Assembly (NCBI GenBank): GCA_951812955.1 | Contig: OX638340.1 | Span: 256,001 to 320,000 of the forward strand | DNA: 64,000 nucleotides | Source: an uncultured Gemmatimonadota bacterium | Lineage (GTDB): Bacteria > JAAXHH01 | Reading direction: 5' to 3' | Shown: positions 8,264 through 17,694 of the stretch, piece after piece | Layout of the letters: each line of letters starts with the position of its first letter | Numbering within the stretch: position 1 is the stretch's first letter | Translations under genes and position numbers: made by a program | The notes under the pieces: generated by a model | Database searches by the model: none | The model's input: the letters and a program-made list of their open reading frames with translations, nothing else | Told to the model about the DNA's origin: nothing

Positions 8264-8731
8264 TCAGCGAACGGAACCACCGAATTTATCGGTCAGCACT
8301 TCACGACGGTAATCGAAAATCGCGTTGAGCTGGTTCTTGACGATCGCTGCATGTACCATACGGCCCAGGAATCCAAATGGCAAGGCATAATGGATCAGGT
8401 CGACCATTTCCACGCCGTGCTCTGTAGACCGCAATCGGTGTTCATGGTGCCAGAATCTGTATGGTCCGGATCTCTGCTCGTCAATAAAATACCTAAGTGG
8501 TTCTGCCTGAGTAATTTCCGTGACCCAGTTAAAGCAGAACATTTTGTATAGCGCGAGCCTGTAGGTGATGATGAGGCCCGGGTATACGCAGTCGGGCAGT
8601 TCGGAAGTAACGGTCAGTCCGACCCCCGGCGGAGTCAGATTGCGAAGATGCTCGGGGCGGCACAGGAAATCCCAGGCGGCGTCCAGGGATACGGGCAGAA
8701 TCTGCGTACGCTGCAACCGGTAGACATGCAT
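8264..8731 (-). CDS. SRPBCC superfamily protein (START/Bet v1-like; polyketide cyclase/dehydrase-like)
   Basis: About 155 aa from MHVYRLQR...; the aromatic-rich ...RFWHHEH... core is typical. The ORF extends to 8848, but the MHVYRL start fits the family length. Confidence 0.55.
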   Translation of the reverse strand: MHVYRLQRTQILPVSLDAAWDFLCRPEHLRNLTPPGVGLTVTSELPDCVYPGLIITYRLALYKMFCFNWVTEITQAEPLRYFIDEQRSGPYRFWHHEHRLRSTEHGVEMVDLIHYALPFGFLGRMVHAAIVKNQLNAIFDYRREVLTDKFGGSVR

Positions 8732-8939
8732 GGAATCCGGATCTCCTGTTCGAATTATCCGACTAACCGGGGTCTGCCCCGTCGCAATGCCGACAGGTGT
8801 GCCCCTCCAGTCCGAAGCCGCTATTCCGGATACTACGGGAATCCTCAATGCGAGTCAATCCACATTGGCCGGGTGGGGGAATCGCGCGTGCGCACCGACC
8901 TTGACATTGCGTGGTCCCGGTCTTAACTTTCGCCACACT

Positions 8940-11594: not shown

Positions 11595-13019
11595 TCACGG
11601 ATTTTCTGTCTTCGCCGCCGCATTCGAGCGCCGGCGCAGGTACAGGTAGGCAGGGATGCCGAGGGCAATCAGGGCGAGGCCCGATATGGACTCAACGGGG
11701 GTTTCGAAGAGCATGTTGGCGAGAATGCCGGCGGAACCGGCGATGAACAGCAGGGGAACGGCCGGGTAGCCCCAGGCTTTGTAGGGCCTGGGCAGGTCGG
11801 GCTGTTTCCTGCGCAGGGTGAATACCGCGGCCGCCCCGGCGATCCACAGCATGAGATTGGCGAAGGTGACAAAGGTAATCAGGTCTTCGAACGTACCGCT
11901 GAGGGTGAGCACGCATGCCCATGCGGCCTGAAAAATCACTGCCTGACCCGGTGTGCGGTACCTCGGATGTACCGTGCCCGCCCGTTTGAAGAACAGCCCG
12001 TCCCGCGCCATGGCGAAATAGACACGGGGTCCCACCAGGATGCTGGCGTTCAGCGCGCCGACGATGGACACGATGACGGCAGCCGAGATCAGTACGGCGC
12101 CCGTTTCTCCGAAGAGGGCGTTGGCAGCCACTTCACCGACCCGGACGATCCCGGCCATTTCCCCTACCGGCATGGCCTTCAGGTAGATGTAGTTCACCAG
12201 CAGATAGACCACGGTGACGCTCGCGGTGCCCACGACGAGAGCCCGGGGCAGGTTTCGCGCCGGGTCCCTGACCTCTCCCGCTACGAAGGTAACTTCCTCC
12301 CATCCGGCGAAGGCCCAGGCGACGGCGATAAGGGCGACGCCGAAAGCGACCACCAGTTGCCCGAAGTCAATATCCTGCGGGTTGATCCTGAAGTCGATGG
12401 GCTGTGTGGACCCGCTCCAGAGTCCGAACAGGATGAACAAACCGAGCGCGGCGACCTTGATCACCGAGGACACGTTGGTGATGTGCTTGCTGAAGGTGAC
12501 GCCCCGGTAATTTACGACCGTAAGCAGGACGACCAGGGCCAGTGCCGTGACGTGGCCGGCGGAAAGGGAATACTGAAACGTCCAGCCTGGAAGGGCGATT
12601 TCGGTTTCGAAGAATACGTTGGCCATCCCGAAGGAGGGGATGAAGTACCCGGCGTATTCTGCGAATCCCACGGCGAGCGCGGCGATGATTCCGGTCAGGT
12701 ACATGGTGAAGGACACCCAGCCGAAGAGGAATCCGCAGAACGGACCGTAAGCTTCCCGGAGATATACGTACTGGCCGCCGGCCCTGGGCATGGCGGCTCC
12801 GAGCTCGGAGTAGGCCAGCGCGCCGGCGAGGGCGTGCAGTCCGCCGAACAGCCAGGCAAGGAGTATGAGCGAGGCCGAGGGTATGCCCCGGGCCATCAGG
12901 CCGGTGGTGAGGAAAATCCCCGAACCGATCACGATGCCGATAATGATCATCGTGGTGTCGAAAAGACCGAGCTGGCGGACCAGGCCAGTCTTTTCTTTTT
13001 GATCGCTCGGAATTGCCAT
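11595..13019 (-). CDS. APC superfamily amino acid permease
   Basis: 474 aa with 12 predicted TM segments. The N-terminal block GLFDTTMIIIGIVIGSGIF is typical of amino acid/polyamine permeases. Confidence 0.85.
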   Translation of the reverse strand: MAIPSDQKEKTGLVRQLGLFDTTMIIIGIVIGSGIFLTTGLMARGIPSASLILLAWLFGGLHALAGALAYSELGAAMPRAGGQYVYLREAYGPFCGFLFGWVSFTMYLTGIIAALAVGFAEYAGYFIPSFGMANVFFETEIALPGWTFQYSLSAGHVTALALVVLLTVVNYRGVTFSKHITNVSSVIKVAALGLFILFGLWSGSTQPIDFRINPQDIDFGQLVVAFGVALIAVAWAFAGWEEVTFVAGEVRDPARNLPRALVVGTASVTVVYLLVNYIYLKAMPVGEMAGIVRVGEVAANALFGETGAVLISAAVIVSIVGALNASILVGPRVYFAMARDGLFFKRAGTVHPRYRTPGQAVIFQAAWACVLTLSGTFEDLITFVTFANLMLWIAGAAAVFTLRRKQPDLPRPYKAWGYPAVPLLFIAGSAGILANMLFETPVESISGLALIALGIPAYLYLRRRSNAAAKTENP

Positions 13020-13057
13020 ATATTGAGAATAGGGGACGTTCCGCGGGGTGGCCGCAC

Positions 13058-13969
13058 ATGGATGCGATCACGGCCCAGGCGGGCATATGGAAGTGGAAAG
13101 CGAACCTCCATGTTACGGGGACGGTTCGCCTAAGTCAAGGTGGGATTGCTGCAGGAAGGAAACCTCGATTGAACGATACGGCGCTGGACCTCATCGACTC
13201 GACGACCTACCCCATTCACCGGCCAGGATCGGCCACGTACAGCGCACTTGTCGCAAGGTGCAGGGATGATCTGGCGGACCGAAGCGCCTGCCTGTTGCCC
13301 GGATTCGTCACGGAGGAGGCCAGGGTACGGATGGTGGCCGAGGTGGACCGTGCCGCGCCCAGCGCTTTTCCTTGCCGGAACGCCCATAACGTATACCTCG
13401 AGGAGCACGACGGCGCCTTTCCGCCCGACCACCCCCGGCGAAGGCTCCAGGCAACGGACCTGGACTCGGTCGCCTTCGATCAGATGCGTCCCACAGACGG
13501 TCTGCACCAGTTGTATTCCTGGGATCCGCTCCTTTCCTTCATAGCCGACGTCCTCAACAAGGAACACTATTACAGGATGGCCGACCCCTTTGCCGCGCTG
13601 ACGGTTAACGTCATGCGAGAGGGACAGAACCACGGCTGGCATTTCGACGAGTCCGAGGCTACGACTACCCTGATGGTACAGGCGCCCGAAGAAGGCGGCG
13701 CATTTGAGTACGCACCGAACGTCCGTCCGGAGGAAGGCGGGTCATACGATACCGTGGAACGGGTGCTGCGCGGCAGCTATCCGGACGTACGTACACTCGC
13801 CGTGAAGCCCGGTACGCTGATCCTCTTCGTCGGCTACCATTCCATGCACCAGGTGACACCGGTCAAGGGTCCGGTTACCCGGTATGTCGCCACGCTCTGC
13901 TATAAGGACCGGCCCAATGTCTGCAACAGCCCCGAGGTACAGAAGCTGTTCTACGGTCGGACGGCATGA
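13058..13969 (+). CDS. Putative Fe(II)/2-oxoglutarate-dependent oxygenase (prolyl-4-hydroxylase-like jelly-roll)
   Basis: HxD...H arrangement (GWHFDESEATTTLMV ... EGGAFEY ... YHSMHQV) resembling the 2OG-FeII_Oxy_3 pattern. Start taken at MDAIT; the ORF opens at 13013, overlapping the divergent permease start. Confidence 0.45.
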   Translation: MDAITAQAGIWKWKANLHVTGTVRLSQGGIAAGRKPRLNDTALDLIDSTTYPIHRPGSATYSALVARCRDDLADRSACLLPGFVTEEARVRMVAEVDRAAPSAFPCRNAHNVYLEEHDGAFPPDHPRRRLQATDLDSVAFDQMRPTDGLHQLYSWDPLLSFIADVLNKEHYYRMADPFAALTVNVMREGQNHGWHFDESEATTTLMVQAPEEGGAFEYAPNVRPEEGGSYDTVERVLRGSYPDVRTLAVKPGTLILFVGYHSMHQVTPVKGPVTRYVATLCYKDRPNVCNSPEVQKLFYGRTA

Positions 13970-13999
13970 CGAAGGGAGTTTACGGGAAGAAGGTCGTTT

Positions 14000-15307
14000 T
14001 TGGAGATCGCTCAAGGACCAGGAGGTGGACCATTGCACGCAGTGATCATTGGGAACGGCGTAACAGGGGTAACAGCCGCCACGCGGCTCCGGCAGCTTCA
14101 GCCCGACTGGAAGGTCACGCTGGTATCGGGTGAATCGGCCTTCCACTATTCCCGCCCCGCACTCATGTACATCTTCATGGGGCACATGACCTACGAGGCG
14201 ACGAAACCCTTCGAGGACAGTTTCTGGCGAGACCAGCGGCTGGACCTGGTCCGAGACTGGGTCACCGCCATCGATATCGACGACAGGCAACTGGTTCTAC
14301 ACCGGAACGGACGCCTGCCCTACGACCGTCTGCTGATCGCCACCGGCGCCAAATCGAACAAGTTCGGATGGCCGGGCCAGGACCTCGATGGCGTCCAGGG
14401 CCTGTACAACCTGAAAGACCTGCATCAACTGTATAAAAACGCCGAACGGGCCAGTCACGCGGTCATCGTCGGCGGCGGGCTGATCGGCATCGAACTCGCC
14501 GAGATGCTGCATTCGAGGCATATCCACGTCACGTTTCTCATACGCGAGCCCTCCTACTGGCGCAACATCCTGCCCATGGAAGAATCGGGCATGCTGAACC
14601 GGCTGATCGAGGAGCAGGGCATCGGCCTGATCAAGGAGACCAACCTGAAGGAAATCGTGGACGACGGCACAGGAAAGGTCGAAGCGGTCATTACCGAGTT
14701 CGACGACCGGATCGACTGCCAGCTGGTCGGTCTGACGCCGGGTGTTTCGCCCAACACGGACCTGGTCAAGTCGACGCCCATCGAAACGGGGCGGGGCGTC
14801 CTGGTCGACAACGCGTTCCGTACGAACATACCCGACATCTACGCCGCCGGGGACTGTGCGGAAATCGTCAGCCGGAACGGGGGACGCAACCTGATCCAGC
14901 AGGTCTGGTACACGGGCAAGAAGCAGGGCAAGGTCGCCGGTGAGGTGCTGGCCGGACAGGATACGGAGTACGACCCTGGGATCTGGTACAATTCGGCCAA
15001 GTTCTTCGACCTGGAGTACCAGACCTACGGCATGATTCTGAATACGCCCCAGCCCGGAGAGCGCCACCTTTTCTGGGAACATCCATCCCATCGCCACGCC
15101 GTCCGCATCGTCGGCGTCGACGGGTGCATCAAGGCATTCAATTTCATGGGGATCAGGGCCCGCCACGAAGTATGTGAGCGGTGGATTGCCGAGCGGCGTA
15201 CCGTGGAGTACGTCCTGGACCACCTGGAAGAAGCCAACTTCGATCCGGAGTTTTTCGTCCGCCACGAGTCGGAGATCGTTCGCTCATTAAAGGAGCAACT
15301 CGCATGA
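14000..15307 (+). CDS. FAD-dependent pyridine nucleotide-disulfide oxidoreductase family protein, ferredoxin/rubredoxin-reductase-like
   Basis: Two GxGxxG dinucleotide folds (IIGNGVTGVTAA and VIVGGGLIGIELAE), ...YSRPAL... like the PY.RPpLSK motif of ferredoxin reductases, and AAGDCAE. Confidence 0.75.
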   Translation: MEIAQGPGGGPLHAVIIGNGVTGVTAATRLRQLQPDWKVTLVSGESAFHYSRPALMYIFMGHMTYEATKPFEDSFWRDQRLDLVRDWVTAIDIDDRQLVLHRNGRLPYDRLLIATGAKSNKFGWPGQDLDGVQGLYNLKDLHQLYKNAERASHAVIVGGGLIGIELAEMLHSRHIHVTFLIREPSYWRNILPMEESGMLNRLIEEQGIGLIKETNLKEIVDDGTGKVEAVITEFDDRIDCQLVGLTPGVSPNTDLVKSTPIETGRGVLVDNAFRTNIPDIYAAGDCAEIVSRNGGRNLIQQVWYTGKKQGKVAGEVLAGQDTEYDPGIWYNSAKFFDLEYQTYGMILNTPQPGERHLFWEHPSHRHAVRIVGVDGCIKAFNFMGIRARHEVCERWIAERRTVEYVLDHLEEANFDPEFFVRHESEIVRSLKEQLA

Positions 15308-16758
15308 GCACACCGCCCGCTGCACCGACGTTGATCGATCCGGAATCCATTTCGTACTTCTACGACGAGGAGGCCGAAGGGTTCGGCGAGCCCGAGTCCG
15401 CGGCGGAGGCGCCCAGGAACCCGGGCATGATGGTCTCCGCCGGCGTGATCGGGCTGGGTTTCCTCGCGCTCGTCGTATCCCTGCTCGGTATGCCGCTCTC
15501 AGGCGCCTGGACGCCCTTCCTGCTGTCCTTCGGCCTGCTGTCTGCCGGAACCATCGGTTACGTCTGGTTCACGTACAGGGACACGGTGCCCGGTATCAAG
15601 CACGACGGCATCATGTTCGGAAACACGACACACCGCGGCGCCATCGCCTGGGCGCTGGGCATCGCGCTCACCGGGTTCTACGTCGTACTGTACTGGTGGC
15701 CCGAATACCTGTCGCGTGCCATCGCGCTCGTTGAGCCGCTGTCGCAGGTCCTGGCGGGGCAGCCGGCGAACCAGTGGTTTCTATACGGGTTTCTCTACAC
15801 GATGGCCGTGGTGCTCTTCGGATTCCGCATGTTCATGCGTTACCGCCACAACCGTTATCACATCATCCGAACGATTTCGGTCATGTTCTTTCAACTGGTC
15901 CTGGCCTTCGTCCTTCCCCAGTTCCTCCGCGCGCTGAACGAACCGGAGTTCTACTTCAGCTACTTCTGGCCCCTGAAGTACGACTACCTGTTCCCCGGTA
16001 CCGTGGATTACCTGGTCAACAGCCCGGGCGCCCTGGGTTCGTTCATGGTGTTCTGGGGGGTGGCCTGCACGTTTATCGCCACGCCCGTGCTGACCTATTT
16101 CTACGGCAAGCGGTGGTACTGTTCCTGGGTATGCGGCTGCGGCGGGCTCGCCGAAACCCTCGGCGACCCCTGGCGGCACCTGACGCCCAAATCGACCGTA
16201 TCGTGGAAAATCGAACGGGCGATCATTTACGCGGTGCTCCTGCTCATCATCGCGACGACGGCCGTGCTCTGGGTGAGCAGCACGTCCGAAGGCGCGCTGA
16301 GCGCCATTTCCGCTCCGTTGAAACAGTGGTACGGTTTCTACATCGGCGCGGTCTTCGCCGGGGTCATCGGAGTAGGGTTCTATCCCATACTCGGCAATCG
16401 GGTCTGGTGCCGCTTCGGGTGCCCGATGGCCGCGGTGCTGGGCATCATCCAGCGCTTCTTCTCCCGGTTCCGAATCACAACCAACGGCGGGCAGTGCATG
16501 TCCTGCGGTAACTGCACGACCTATTGCGAAATGGGCATCGACGTGCGGGCCTATGCGGAGCGCGGCGAGAATATCGTCCGGTCTTCCTGCGTGGGATGCG
16601 GGGTCTGTTCGGCCGTGTGTCCCCGGGGCGTGCTCAAGCTCGAGAACGGCATGTCCCACGGAGACCGCTACCCGGGGTCCGACAAACCGCTGAGCGCTTT
16701 CTCCGAGGCCGTCAGCAAGGGCGCCAGGGTCTACGGCGACCGCGATGGCTACGTATAG
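15304..16758 (+). CDS. Polytopic membrane protein with C-terminal 2x[4Fe-4S] ferredoxin domain (NapH/MauN-like polyferredoxin)
   Basis: The start ATG overlaps the upstream stop (ATGA at 15304-15307). Multiple TM helices; CSWVCGCGG, then CMSCGNCTTYCEMG and CVGCGVCSAVCPRG (CxxCxxCxxxCP). Confidence 0.7.
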   Translation: MSTPPAAPTLIDPESISYFYDEEAEGFGEPESAAEAPRNPGMMVSAGVIGLGFLALVVSLLGMPLSGAWTPFLLSFGLLSAGTIGYVWFTYRDTVPGIKHDGIMFGNTTHRGAIAWALGIALTGFYVVLYWWPEYLSRAIALVEPLSQVLAGQPANQWFLYGFLYTMAVVLFGFRMFMRYRHNRYHIIRTISVMFFQLVLAFVLPQFLRALNEPEFYFSYFWPLKYDYLFPGTVDYLVNSPGALGSFMVFWGVACTFIATPVLTYFYGKRWYCSWVCGCGGLAETLGDPWRHLTPKSTVSWKIERAIIYAVLLLIIATTAVLWVSSTSEGALSAISAPLKQWYGFYIGAVFAGVIGVGFYPILGNRVWCRFGCPMAAVLGIIQRFFSRFRITTNGGQCMSCGNCTTYCEMGIDVRAYAERGENIVRSSCVGCGVCSAVCPRGVLKLENGMSHGDRYPGSDKPLSAFSEAVSKGARVYGDRDGYV

Positions 16759-16788
16759 TGGCCTTGCAGTACAGGGCGCCACCCTGTA

Positions 16789-17694
16789 CTACCTGACCAG
16801 GAAAATAACCACCGCGACCGTGACGATGCTGCAGATGGTGGACAGGAACACGGCGTTGGCCGCGAAATCCTCCCGGCTGCCGAATTCCATCGCGATCAGC
16901 ACGGTATTGATCGCGGTTGGATAACTGGTGGATACAACCAGGATCGGGGCGATTCTGGGATCGATGTCCAGCAGGAGCACGAGGCCGTAGCCGATCAGGG
17001 GAGAGACCAGCAGACGGCAGACCAGGGACGCCAGGCTGGCTTTCCACTCCAGCGTGATGGGGGTCCGGGCCAGCTGCATGCCCAGGGTGACCAGAGCCAT
17101 GGGAACGAGCGCTTCGGCCAGGTACTCGATCGGAAGCCAGATAAAGCCCGGGAGCTGCAGGCCGTAGTTCCGGATCGCGAAGGCCAGGATCAGCGCATAG
17201 ACGAATGGCATCTTGAAGGACTGCAGGAAGGCTCTCCGGGCGGACAGGCGTCCAATCGAAACGAAGAACAACCCCAGGGTGAAAACCAGAAAGTTCTGGA
17301 CGGCCAGGACGATGGACTGGACGGCCAGGCCCAGGGAGGGAAAAGACAGTTCACTGGCCGGAAAGCCGTAATTCCCGCTGTTGTAATACATGACGGACAG
17401 GCTGAAGGCCTGTTTCATGTCATTCCGGTACCGCATGACCAGGGATCCGATCACACTGAGCACGTAAAGCGCGACCAGCATGAGCAGGCAGAATACGGCG
17501 GTGTCCCATACGAATTCGGAGGAAAGCTCAGACTGGGTGAGGGATACGACGAGCGTAGCGGGCATGACTAGGTACAGCAGTATCCGCGTCAGGGCCTGCA
17601 GGTCGAACCGCCATTTTTTCTGGAACAGGTACCCGAGCGAAATGAGAACGAAAATCGGGGCGATGATGTCGATCAGGATGTTCAGAAATGGCAT
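16789..17694 (-). CDS. AEC (auxin efflux carrier) family transporter
   Basis: 301 aa, about 10 TM. N-terminus MPFLNILIDIIAPIFVLISLGY is typical of AEC/malonate-type permeases. Confidence 0.8.
   Translation of the reverse strand: MPFLNILIDIIAPIFVLISLGYLFQKKWRFDLQALTRILLYLVMPATLVVSLTQSELSSEFVWDTAVFCLLMLVALYVLSVIGSLVMRYRNDMKQAFSLSVMYYNSGNYGFPASELSFPSLGLAVQSIVLAVQNFLVFTLGLFFVSIGRLSARRAFLQSFKMPFVYALILAFAIRNYGLQLPGFIWLPIEYLAEALVPMALVTLGMQLARTPITLEWKASLASLVCRLLVSPLIGYGLVLLLDIDPRIAPILVVSTSYPTAINTVLIAMEFGSREDFAANAVFLSTICSIVTVAVVIFLVR

Follow-up and report, generated by a model that had tools for sequence, protein, structure and literature searches.

The window analysed here, a stretch of 64,000 nucleotides from an uncultured Gemmatimonadota bacterium (contig OX638340.1, positions 256,001 to 320,000), carries three adjacent plus-strand open reading frames (ORFs) coding for an Fe(II)/2-oxoglutarate (2OG) oxygenase, a flavoprotein and a membrane polyferredoxin. 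A first-pass annotation, made from the sequence alone, had joined them in one redox module. We read the interval instead as the meeting point of two independent units lying side by side, one formed by the oxygenase and a divergently oriented permease gene, the other by the flavoprotein and the polyferredoxin. The latter would be a self-contained two-gene operon (14033-16758) coding for an NAD(P)H-oxidising two-subunit membrane oxidoreductase that may reduce menaquinone. This is the best explanation overall, and we consider it modestly probable.

Species-representative genomes were scanned with the polyferredoxin and presented at least 80 loci; the counts given for this survey hold among the matches listed. 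All 76 loci with upstream DNA had the flavoprotein gene directly upstream of the polyferredoxin gene and on the same strand, while in the remaining 4 of the 80 loci the polyferredoxin begins at a contig edge. The loci cover more than 12 phyla: Latescibacterota, Gemmatimonadota, Dadabacteria, Planctomycetota, Bacteroidota, Rhodothermales, Ignavibacteria, Calditrichia, Myxococcota, Spirochaetota, Armatimonadota and others. The adjacency is far above chance, and the pair is a real unit. Order and strand in all these loci bear out the coupling of a flavoprotein to a NapH-like polyferredoxin with several transmembrane (TM) helices that the first-pass annotation had proposed, and the co-occurrence survey it had suggested gave no case of a polyferredoxin that lacked the flavoprotein and had nap, mau or cco genes next to it. 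Clustering of all neighbouring ORFs over the 80 loci revealed no universal neighbour besides the flavoprotein. The neighbours in the window are transporters, a short-chain dehydrogenase/reductase, a lipid kinase and a solute-binding protein, with no napG/napA, mauM or cco genes among them. One marine lineage has the pair on its own, as a two-gene operon whose genes overlap by 4 bases and whose flanking genes are oppositely oriented. The family is large: the searches with polyferredoxin and flavoprotein each reached at least 8000 candidates, and when 1.84 billion representative proteins were searched exhaustively, 255 polyferredoxin clusters at 50 % identity resulted (E ≤ 1e-30). Identity within the family is 55-70 % between phyla, and the pair is retained in complete chromosomes of 1.6-2.0 Mb (L010, L011, L020). 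In Dadabacteria and related metagenome-assembled genomes (L006-L011, L020) a conserved ORF of 444 amino acids (aa) precedes the flavoprotein by 0-57 bp (e.g., L020 7340-8674); it starts with a nitroreductase-like RRSRRF motif and had no match in Pfam or NCBIfam. A two-domain SseA-like rhodanese is encoded about 2.3 kb upstream in loci of this type.

The flavoprotein is, judged from its sequence, of the ferredoxin/rubredoxin-reductase type within the glutathione-reductase fold and has no named equivalog. It matched the Pfam family Pyr_redox_2 with 164.7 bits (cut-off 26.1) and contains two Rossmann GxGxxG motifs (GNGVTG, residues 7-12; GGGLIG, residues 147-152). The closest NCBIfam models were HcaD, PadH, NorW, AndAa and the N-terminus of NirB, all of them NAD(P)H-dependent reductases with Fe-S or rubredoxin partners. 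The scores of 125-149 bits stayed below every equivalog cut-off (HcaD, NorW, PadH, AndAa, CoADR and NirB; 392-650 bits). The first-pass annotation had recognised the reductase type correctly, but its additional label of a class I disulfide reductase was wrong: a redox-active cysteine pair (CxxxxC) was not found in the flavoprotein, in which C275 and C381 are the sole invariant cysteines. The motif HYSRPAL (residues 38-44) is located at the position where, as we presume, the NADH peroxidase/CoADR group carries its catalytic cysteine. A function as disulfide, persulfide or CoA-disulfide reductase, considered on account of the rhodanese genes nearby in Dadabacteria, was ruled out, since the catalytic cysteine is missing. 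The flavoprotein has no signal peptide.

AorC was the top match of the flavoprotein in the PDB, both by sequence (8c0z_E, E = 1.5e-34) and by the fold of an AlphaFold2 (AF2) model with a pLDDT of 88 (TM-score 0.84). It was followed in the fold comparison by the putidaredoxin, toluene-dioxygenase and BphA4 reductases, with TM-scores of 0.79-0.83 to PdR, TodA and ArR. AorC resembles the flavoprotein in fold and length (424 aa), but the identity is only about 24 %. In the tungsten aldehyde oxidoreductase AorABC (PDB 8c0z) this subunit exchanges electrons between NAD and a [4Fe-4S] cluster in AorA, a polyferredoxin; 9.5 Å separate its flavin adenine dinucleotide (FAD) from that cluster (PMC10413684). 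Unlike the AorABC, PadH, putidaredoxin, toluene-dioxygenase and BphA4 systems, the pair in the window has a membrane-embedded Fe-S partner and includes neither a catalytic tungsten or molybdenum component nor a Rieske oxygenase.

The polyferredoxin is, on sequence grounds, a member of the NapH/Fer4_5 superfamily that stands outside NapH/MauN, CcoG and NosR. Fer4_5 (PF12801) was matched in two stretches with 25.4 bits (cut-off 22). The thresholds of TIGR02163 for NapH/MauN (56.5 bits versus 213.05), of NF007013 (55.7 versus 234) and of the NosR model (17.9 versus 1000) were missed; Pfam gave no FMN_bind match in the protein, and the window has no such gene. Identity to E. coli NapH is 24 % and limited to the C-terminal ~200 aa, and the N-terminal ~260 residues are without a NapH counterpart. 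NCBIfam has no curated model for the polyferredoxin/flavoprotein family, NCBI and JGI names of both proteins are generic only, and an exact look-up of the window polyferredoxin in the contig index returned no record. A PDB search with the polyferredoxin profile retrieved generic ferredoxin domains only, and no PDB structure matches the fold of its AF2 model (pTM 0.80).

Eight TM helices (residues 43-63, 70-90, 112-132, 158-178, 190-210, 244-264, 305-325 and 343-363) in an N-in/C-in topology place the 2x[4Fe-4S] domain, like the two Cys motifs, on the predicted cytoplasmic side, the side of the flavoprotein. This answers the question, raised in the first-pass annotation, which way the Fe-S domain faces. 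Among 89 polyferredoxin sequences, the three cysteines of motif 1, the two cysteines and the proline of motif 2 and all eight ferredoxin cysteines (CMSCGNCTTYC, residues 398-408; CVGCGVCSAVCP, residues 429-440) are invariant. The motifs cited earlier for the three proteins, i.e. WHFDE...H in the oxygenase, HYSRPAL in the flavoprotein and the two ferredoxin motifs, were all found in place. The first motif of NapH reads CSWVCP, that of the polyferredoxin CSWVCGCGG, with one extra invariant cysteine; CRFGCP aligns with WCGHICP of NapH. An acidic peptide, IDxxxLxYxFDEExxGFxEP, is conserved in the cytoplasmic part ahead of TM1 (residues 11-30; window 15334-15393) and may serve to dock the flavoprotein; the Bacteroidota proteins lack this conservation.

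In the nearest relatives of the membrane and Fe-S module an NAD(P)H flavoprotein is likewise attached, here by covalent fusion, and faces the same side of the membrane. About 25 of the best 150 representative relatives of the polyferredoxin are 630-900 aa long and align only from TM4 on. All seven long relatives tested have an N-terminal Pyr_redox_3 domain of the YpdA/TrxR-like type (TIGR04018, 2.5e-47), thus a flavodomain of another subfamily. The membrane part of the fused protein P0442 is 41 % identical to the window polyferredoxin and keeps CSxVCGCG, FWPL and the TM5 motif. Six TM helices, rather than eight, lie between its flavodomain and its Fe-S domain; the number is even, therefore both domains are located on one side of the membrane. 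Two kinds of NAD(P)H flavoprotein have thus been attached to the same membrane module, once as a subunit and once as a fusion, which provides Rosetta-stone support for a route from flavin via Fe-S to the membrane. Further members of the fused subfamily are P0440, P0450, P0456, P0468, P0472, P0483, P0489 and a protein encoded in L171 (8001-10139), whose neighbours, a Cys-rich repeat lipoprotein and a small membrane protein, are uninformative. The fused flavodomain carries at its N-terminus a GMYIVGD-type motif ahead of the Rossmann fold, which suggests a circular permutation.

From these observations the following route is proposed. The soluble cytoplasmic flavoprotein would oxidise NAD(P)H and, presumably in a physical complex with the polyferredoxin, pass single electrons from its FAD to the two cytoplasmic [4Fe-4S] clusters. 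These electrons would proceed to a site at the cytoplasmic membrane face, composed of the five invariant motif cysteines (CX3CxC and CX3CP), which may hold a cofactor, and conserved TM5 residues, beside TM5-TM8. There a membrane acceptor would be reduced. Menaquinone is favoured because NapH has an assigned quinol/quinone role (PMC8238504). For onward transfer the polyferredoxin offers neither haem ligands nor a redox domain in the periplasm. That the pair couples NAD(P)H via flavin and Fe-S clusters to the membrane we hold to be likely. A quinone as its acceptor is a tentative assignment by analogy. The pair is conserved across the FCB group, Planctomycetota, Dadabacteria and others. It is doubtful whether it represents a class of NAD(P)H:quinone (menaquinone) oxidoreductases not recognised so far or, in wider terms, a membrane reductase driven by NAD(P)H, that would stand apart from NDH-1, NDH-2 and Na+-NQR.

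NapH and MauN share with the polyferredoxin a homologous C-terminal region of ~200 aa, in which a TM helix, a CX3C motif, two further TM helices, a CX3CP motif and two [4Fe-4S] clusters follow each other, with Cys motifs and Fe-S domain in the cytoplasm. They differ in having four TM helices and two CX3CP motifs, whereas the polyferredoxin has eight TM helices and CX3CGCGG as the first motif, with CX3CP as the second. The partners of NapH and MauN are NapG, NapA and MauM, that of the polyferredoxin is a cytoplasmic NAD(P)H flavoprotein. The systems of NosR, NirI and PceC also use a modular NapH-like membrane Fe-S protein as electron conduit (Meheust et al. 2021, PMC8238504). They serve reductases of the periplasm and carry, or are accompanied by, an FMN-binding domain that is extracytosolic and flavinylated by ApbE (PMC8238504). 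In contrast, the polyferredoxin is without FMN_bind and is partnered by a cytoplasmic flavoprotein linked to NAD(P)H.

CcoG (FixG/RdxA) and YccM belong to the same superfamily and have cytoplasm-facing Fe-S clusters, YccM of E. coli being 26 % identical to the polyferredoxin over 207 aa of the C-terminal Cys-motif and ferredoxin part. CcoG reduces Cu(II) via two [4Fe-4S] clusters, faces the cytoplasm and has an unknown physiological donor (PMC7558416; PMC8267372). These features fit a CcoG-like reductase at the cytoplasmic face, in which the Cys motifs of the polyferredoxin would reduce Cu(II), perhaps Fe(III), or another small solute, with the flavoprotein as dedicated NAD(P)H-linked donor. 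The extra invariant cysteine of CX3CGCGG could serve as a metal ligand, and retention of the pair in the complete chromosomes mentioned above fits a housekeeping role. However, CcoG has an immunoglobulin-like FixG_C domain and the ccoGHIS context, and the polyferredoxin has neither: FixG_C was not matched, and Fer4_18 reached only E = 0.02 (15.5 bits, cut-off 27). No cco, cop or other metal-handling genes are present in the window or among the conserved neighbours. The N-terminal membrane domain is distinct, its four extra TM helices and the conserved periplasmic-loop motifs (FWPLK) being without a counterpart, and a flavoprotein gene is always attached. We consider a CcoG-like function unlikely.

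Several points weigh against two independent units with a menaquinone-reducing pair. The polyferredoxin has no recognisable quinone-site motif, no haem ligands (an invariant membrane histidine is missing) and no periplasmic redox domain. The role of NapH as a quinol dehydrogenase rests on genetics, not on structure. Organisms of this kind normally own other NADH:quinone oxidoreductases, and the need for one more is unexplained. An experiment on the pair, or a published description or characterisation of it, was not found in the literature searched, which covered NapH-like proteins, polyferredoxins, Fer4_5/PF12801, DUF547 and Bacteroidetes. The oxygenase adjoins the pair in the window and in closer relatives down to about 61 % oxygenase identity, with no predicted terminator between them; a co-transcription and a loose lineage-specific link are possible. 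Finally, some Bacteroidota have the pair tightly packed into one operon with a DUF547 gene and three glycosyltransferase genes, which a plain quinone reductase leaves unexplained.

In Chitinophagales, Sphingobacteriales and Cytophagales this operon has the order DUF547, flavoprotein, polyferredoxin, GT2 (CesA/PgaC-like), GT2 (AglJ/ArnC-like) and GT87-like membrane transferase, with gaps of 0-60 bp (L025, L027, L037, L077). Such a context suggests, in place of a respiratory role, a supply of reductant for membrane or envelope biosynthesis, e.g., for a step that reduces or modifies a polyprenyl- or lipid-linked intermediate. A TIGR04282 transferase and a rhodanese named rhoda_near_glyco, often nearby in these loci, fit the same picture. 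The glycosyltransferase context, however, was observed in only about 19 of the 80 listed loci, all of them from Bacteroidota, and neither in other phyla nor in the window, and we know of no pathway of this kind that uses such a reductase. A biosynthetic role of the pair is therefore seen as rather improbable, and the NAD(P)H-oxidising membrane oxidoreductase remains the preferred explanation. In the loci of the glycosyltransferase type (L025, L027, L037, L053, L063, L077) the same-strand operon is located at about 7.5-15 kb of each locus, and the DUF547 protein has a lipoprotein signal. The TIGR04282 ('arsenosugar-type') transferase and the rhodanese are often located within a few kb of the operon.

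The oxygenase is assigned by its sequence to the BesD/HalD fold, in its hydroxylase form; members of this family act on free amino acids. The first-pass annotation had called it a P4H-like oxygenase; it is indeed a 2OG/Fe(II) oxygenase and passed the hidden Markov model check, but its better family is HalD (PF23169, 52.5 bits, cut-off 26), while the P4H-like 2OG-FeII_Oxy_3 threshold of Pfam was slightly missed. NCBIfam had no family for it. The protein of 266 aa contains WHFDE at residues 157-161, and W157, H158, D160, H227 and R238 are invariant over 21 diverse homologues. The 2-His-1-carboxylate triad (H158, D160, H227) and a basic 2OG-binding residue (R238) are thus present. PDB matches include lysine halogenases and lysine hydroxylases, with weak E-values (7e-4). 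The jelly-roll core aligns with HalB and HalD, including the iron-binding histidines and the 2OG-binding arginine; however, the halogenases HalB and HalD read WHWG where the oxygenase has WHFD. In radical halogenases glycine or alanine replaces the carboxylate ligand (HxG/A), and halide can occupy the freed site. As the aspartate is kept (HxD, not HxG), the enzyme would be of the hydroxylase type and not a radical halogenase. In another difference to the halogenases, it is regularly paired with an APC permease.

A survey of 80 metagenome loci of the oxygenase (L090-L169), with denominators restricted to loci with enough upstream (57) or downstream (65) DNA, presented a divergent APC permease within 400 bp in 42 of 57; L084, L086 and L088 have it as well. 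Permease and oxygenase are a candidate uptake-and-hydroxylation system, in which a free amino acid would be imported and then hydroxylated with 2OG as co-substrate. In loci of Marinimicrobia the permease-oxygenase unit has a PhyH-family oxygenase gene behind it and comes without the pair; M20 peptidases and amidohydrolases are encoded near this unit.

For the three-gene module of the first-pass annotation, with flavoprotein and polyferredoxin feeding or working with the oxygenase, speak the common strand, the 63-bp spacer and the lack of a predicted terminator. The order permease-oxygenase-flavoprotein-polyferredoxin is repeated in L004, L090, L094, L095 and L097, and in a looser form in Zixibacteria (L084), where an opposite-strand ORF and a gap of ~620 bp separate oxygenase and pair. 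The surveys do not agree with such a module. The oxygenase adjoins the pair in one of 76 pair loci among the matches listed (L004, also Gemmatimonadota) and is missing from the other 75, whereas the flavoprotein follows the oxygenase in four of 65 metagenome loci, all four with oxygenases at least 61 % identical to that of the window, and the pair is missing from 61. Fe(II)/2OG oxygenases draw their electrons from 2-oxoglutarate and need no external reductase, an established piece of biochemistry that leaves the proposed electron input into the oxygenase without basis and assigns the oxygenase to the permease. An apparent fusion of HalD and Pyr_redox domains, P0312, was recognised as a frameshifted read-through of a faulty assembly. 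The three-gene module is hardly credible on this evidence. The oxygenase very probably is not part of the flavoprotein-polyferredoxin pair; their adjacency has to be seen as a lineage-restricted juxtaposition, with co-transcription possible in this lineage. An apparent Rieske-HalD fusion, P0336, was also discarded: it is probably a chimera of the assembly, its two parts meeting at an HGW that they have in common.

The electron partner in the cytoplasm is known for few of the widespread membrane polyferredoxins (NapH/NosR/CcoG/YccM type). In the present family the donor is legible in the genome, as an adjacent flavoprotein gene or, in the sister family, as a fused flavodomain, which is informative in view of the donor gap of CcoG. 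The pair is widespread, strongly conserved and uncharacterised. The literature searched describes modular NapH-like systems whose flavinylated partners are extracytosolic (PMC8238504), and a version with a cytoplasmic NAD(P)H flavoprotein was not found in it. Characterisation of the pair would either bring to light an NAD(P)H entry point into the membranes of many environmentally abundant aerobes or reveal how NapH-type modules are reduced from the cytoplasm. Of smaller practical value, the conserved unit of permease and HxD-containing HalD/BesD-type protein marks a candidate free-amino-acid hydroxylase for biocatalysis.

Table 1. Genes and sequence features in and beside the interval, with window positions
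Feature	Position	Strand	Remarks
APC-family amino-acid permease	11595..13019	-	AA_permease_2 (Pfam) 4.7e-57; divergent to the oxygenase; outside the interval of the first-pass annotation
HalD/BesD-family Fe(II)/2OG oxygenase, predicted HxD hydroxylase type, 266 aa	13169..13969	+	PF23169; start moved from 13058
WHFDE, His and Asp of the 2-His-1-carboxylate iron site	13637..13651	+	distal His227 within 13838-13852
Spacer between oxygenase and flavoprotein, 63 bp	13970..14032	+	AGGAGG ahead of TTG 14033; without terminator-like site
FAD/NAD(P)H flavoprotein, ferredoxin-reductase type, 424 aa	14033..15307	+	Pyr_redox_2 (Pfam) E = 4.1e-48; start moved from 14000
ATGA start/stop overlap of flavoprotein and polyferredoxin (translational coupling)	15304..15307	+	read in the sequence
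NapH-superfamily membrane polyferredoxin, 8 TM, 484 aa	15304..16758	+	Fer4_5 and 4Fe-4S dicluster Pfam families
Membrane domain, eight TM helices, N-in/C-in	15430..16392	+	alignment-averaged hydropathy and positive-inside rule; AF2 helices agree
Cys motif 1, CSWVCGCGG, cytoplasmic loop after TM6	16120..16146	+	C273, C277, C279 invariant
Cys motif 2, CRFGCP (CX3CP), cytoplasmic, after TM8	16408..16425	+	C369, C373, P374 invariant
C-terminal cytoplasmic 2x[4Fe-4S] ferredoxin domain (CMSCGNCTTYC ... CVGCGVCSAVCP)	16495..16623	+	Pfam Fer4_21, Fer4_9, Fer4_10, Fer4_7

Elsewhere in the window, a minus-strand ORF of 194 aa (8264-8848) lies between a CNNM/CorC-type transporter gene and an epimerase/DUF1731 gene; it had no Pfam match at E ≤ 1e-5. 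A scan of 12800-17000 for promoters and terminators gave no site that exceeded the expectation from shuffled sequence, and it placed no terminator between the genes. The Rfam scan of the whole window had no match, thus no riboswitch or leader is located ahead of the genes.

The three same-strand ORFs of the first-pass annotation are real, but two of its start codons had to be moved. For the oxygenase the start is most likely TTG 13169 rather than ATG 13058: a Shine-Dalgarno-like stretch, GGAAGGAAA, is located ahead of this TTG, and nearly all homologues, including the NCBI-called MCY4545371.1, have 266 aa and span 88 % of the 303-aa reading. For the flavoprotein, whose homologues have 424 aa, TTG 14033 behind AGGAGG is most likely the start rather than 14000. 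With these corrections the gap between the two genes amounts to 63 bp, not to the 30 bp given before. The ATGA overlap of flavoprotein and polyferredoxin stood as described. In a rough survey of related loci most flavoprotein/polyferredoxin junctions were overlaps or gaps of at most 30 bp. Bacteroidota of the Hymenobacter type have polyferredoxins of 580-660 aa with an N-terminal extension of ~120-200 aa that had no Pfam match (P0366-P0379; L047, L055, L065, L068, L072, L076, L078), and this extension accounts for the apparent gaps of 300-500 bp in those loci.

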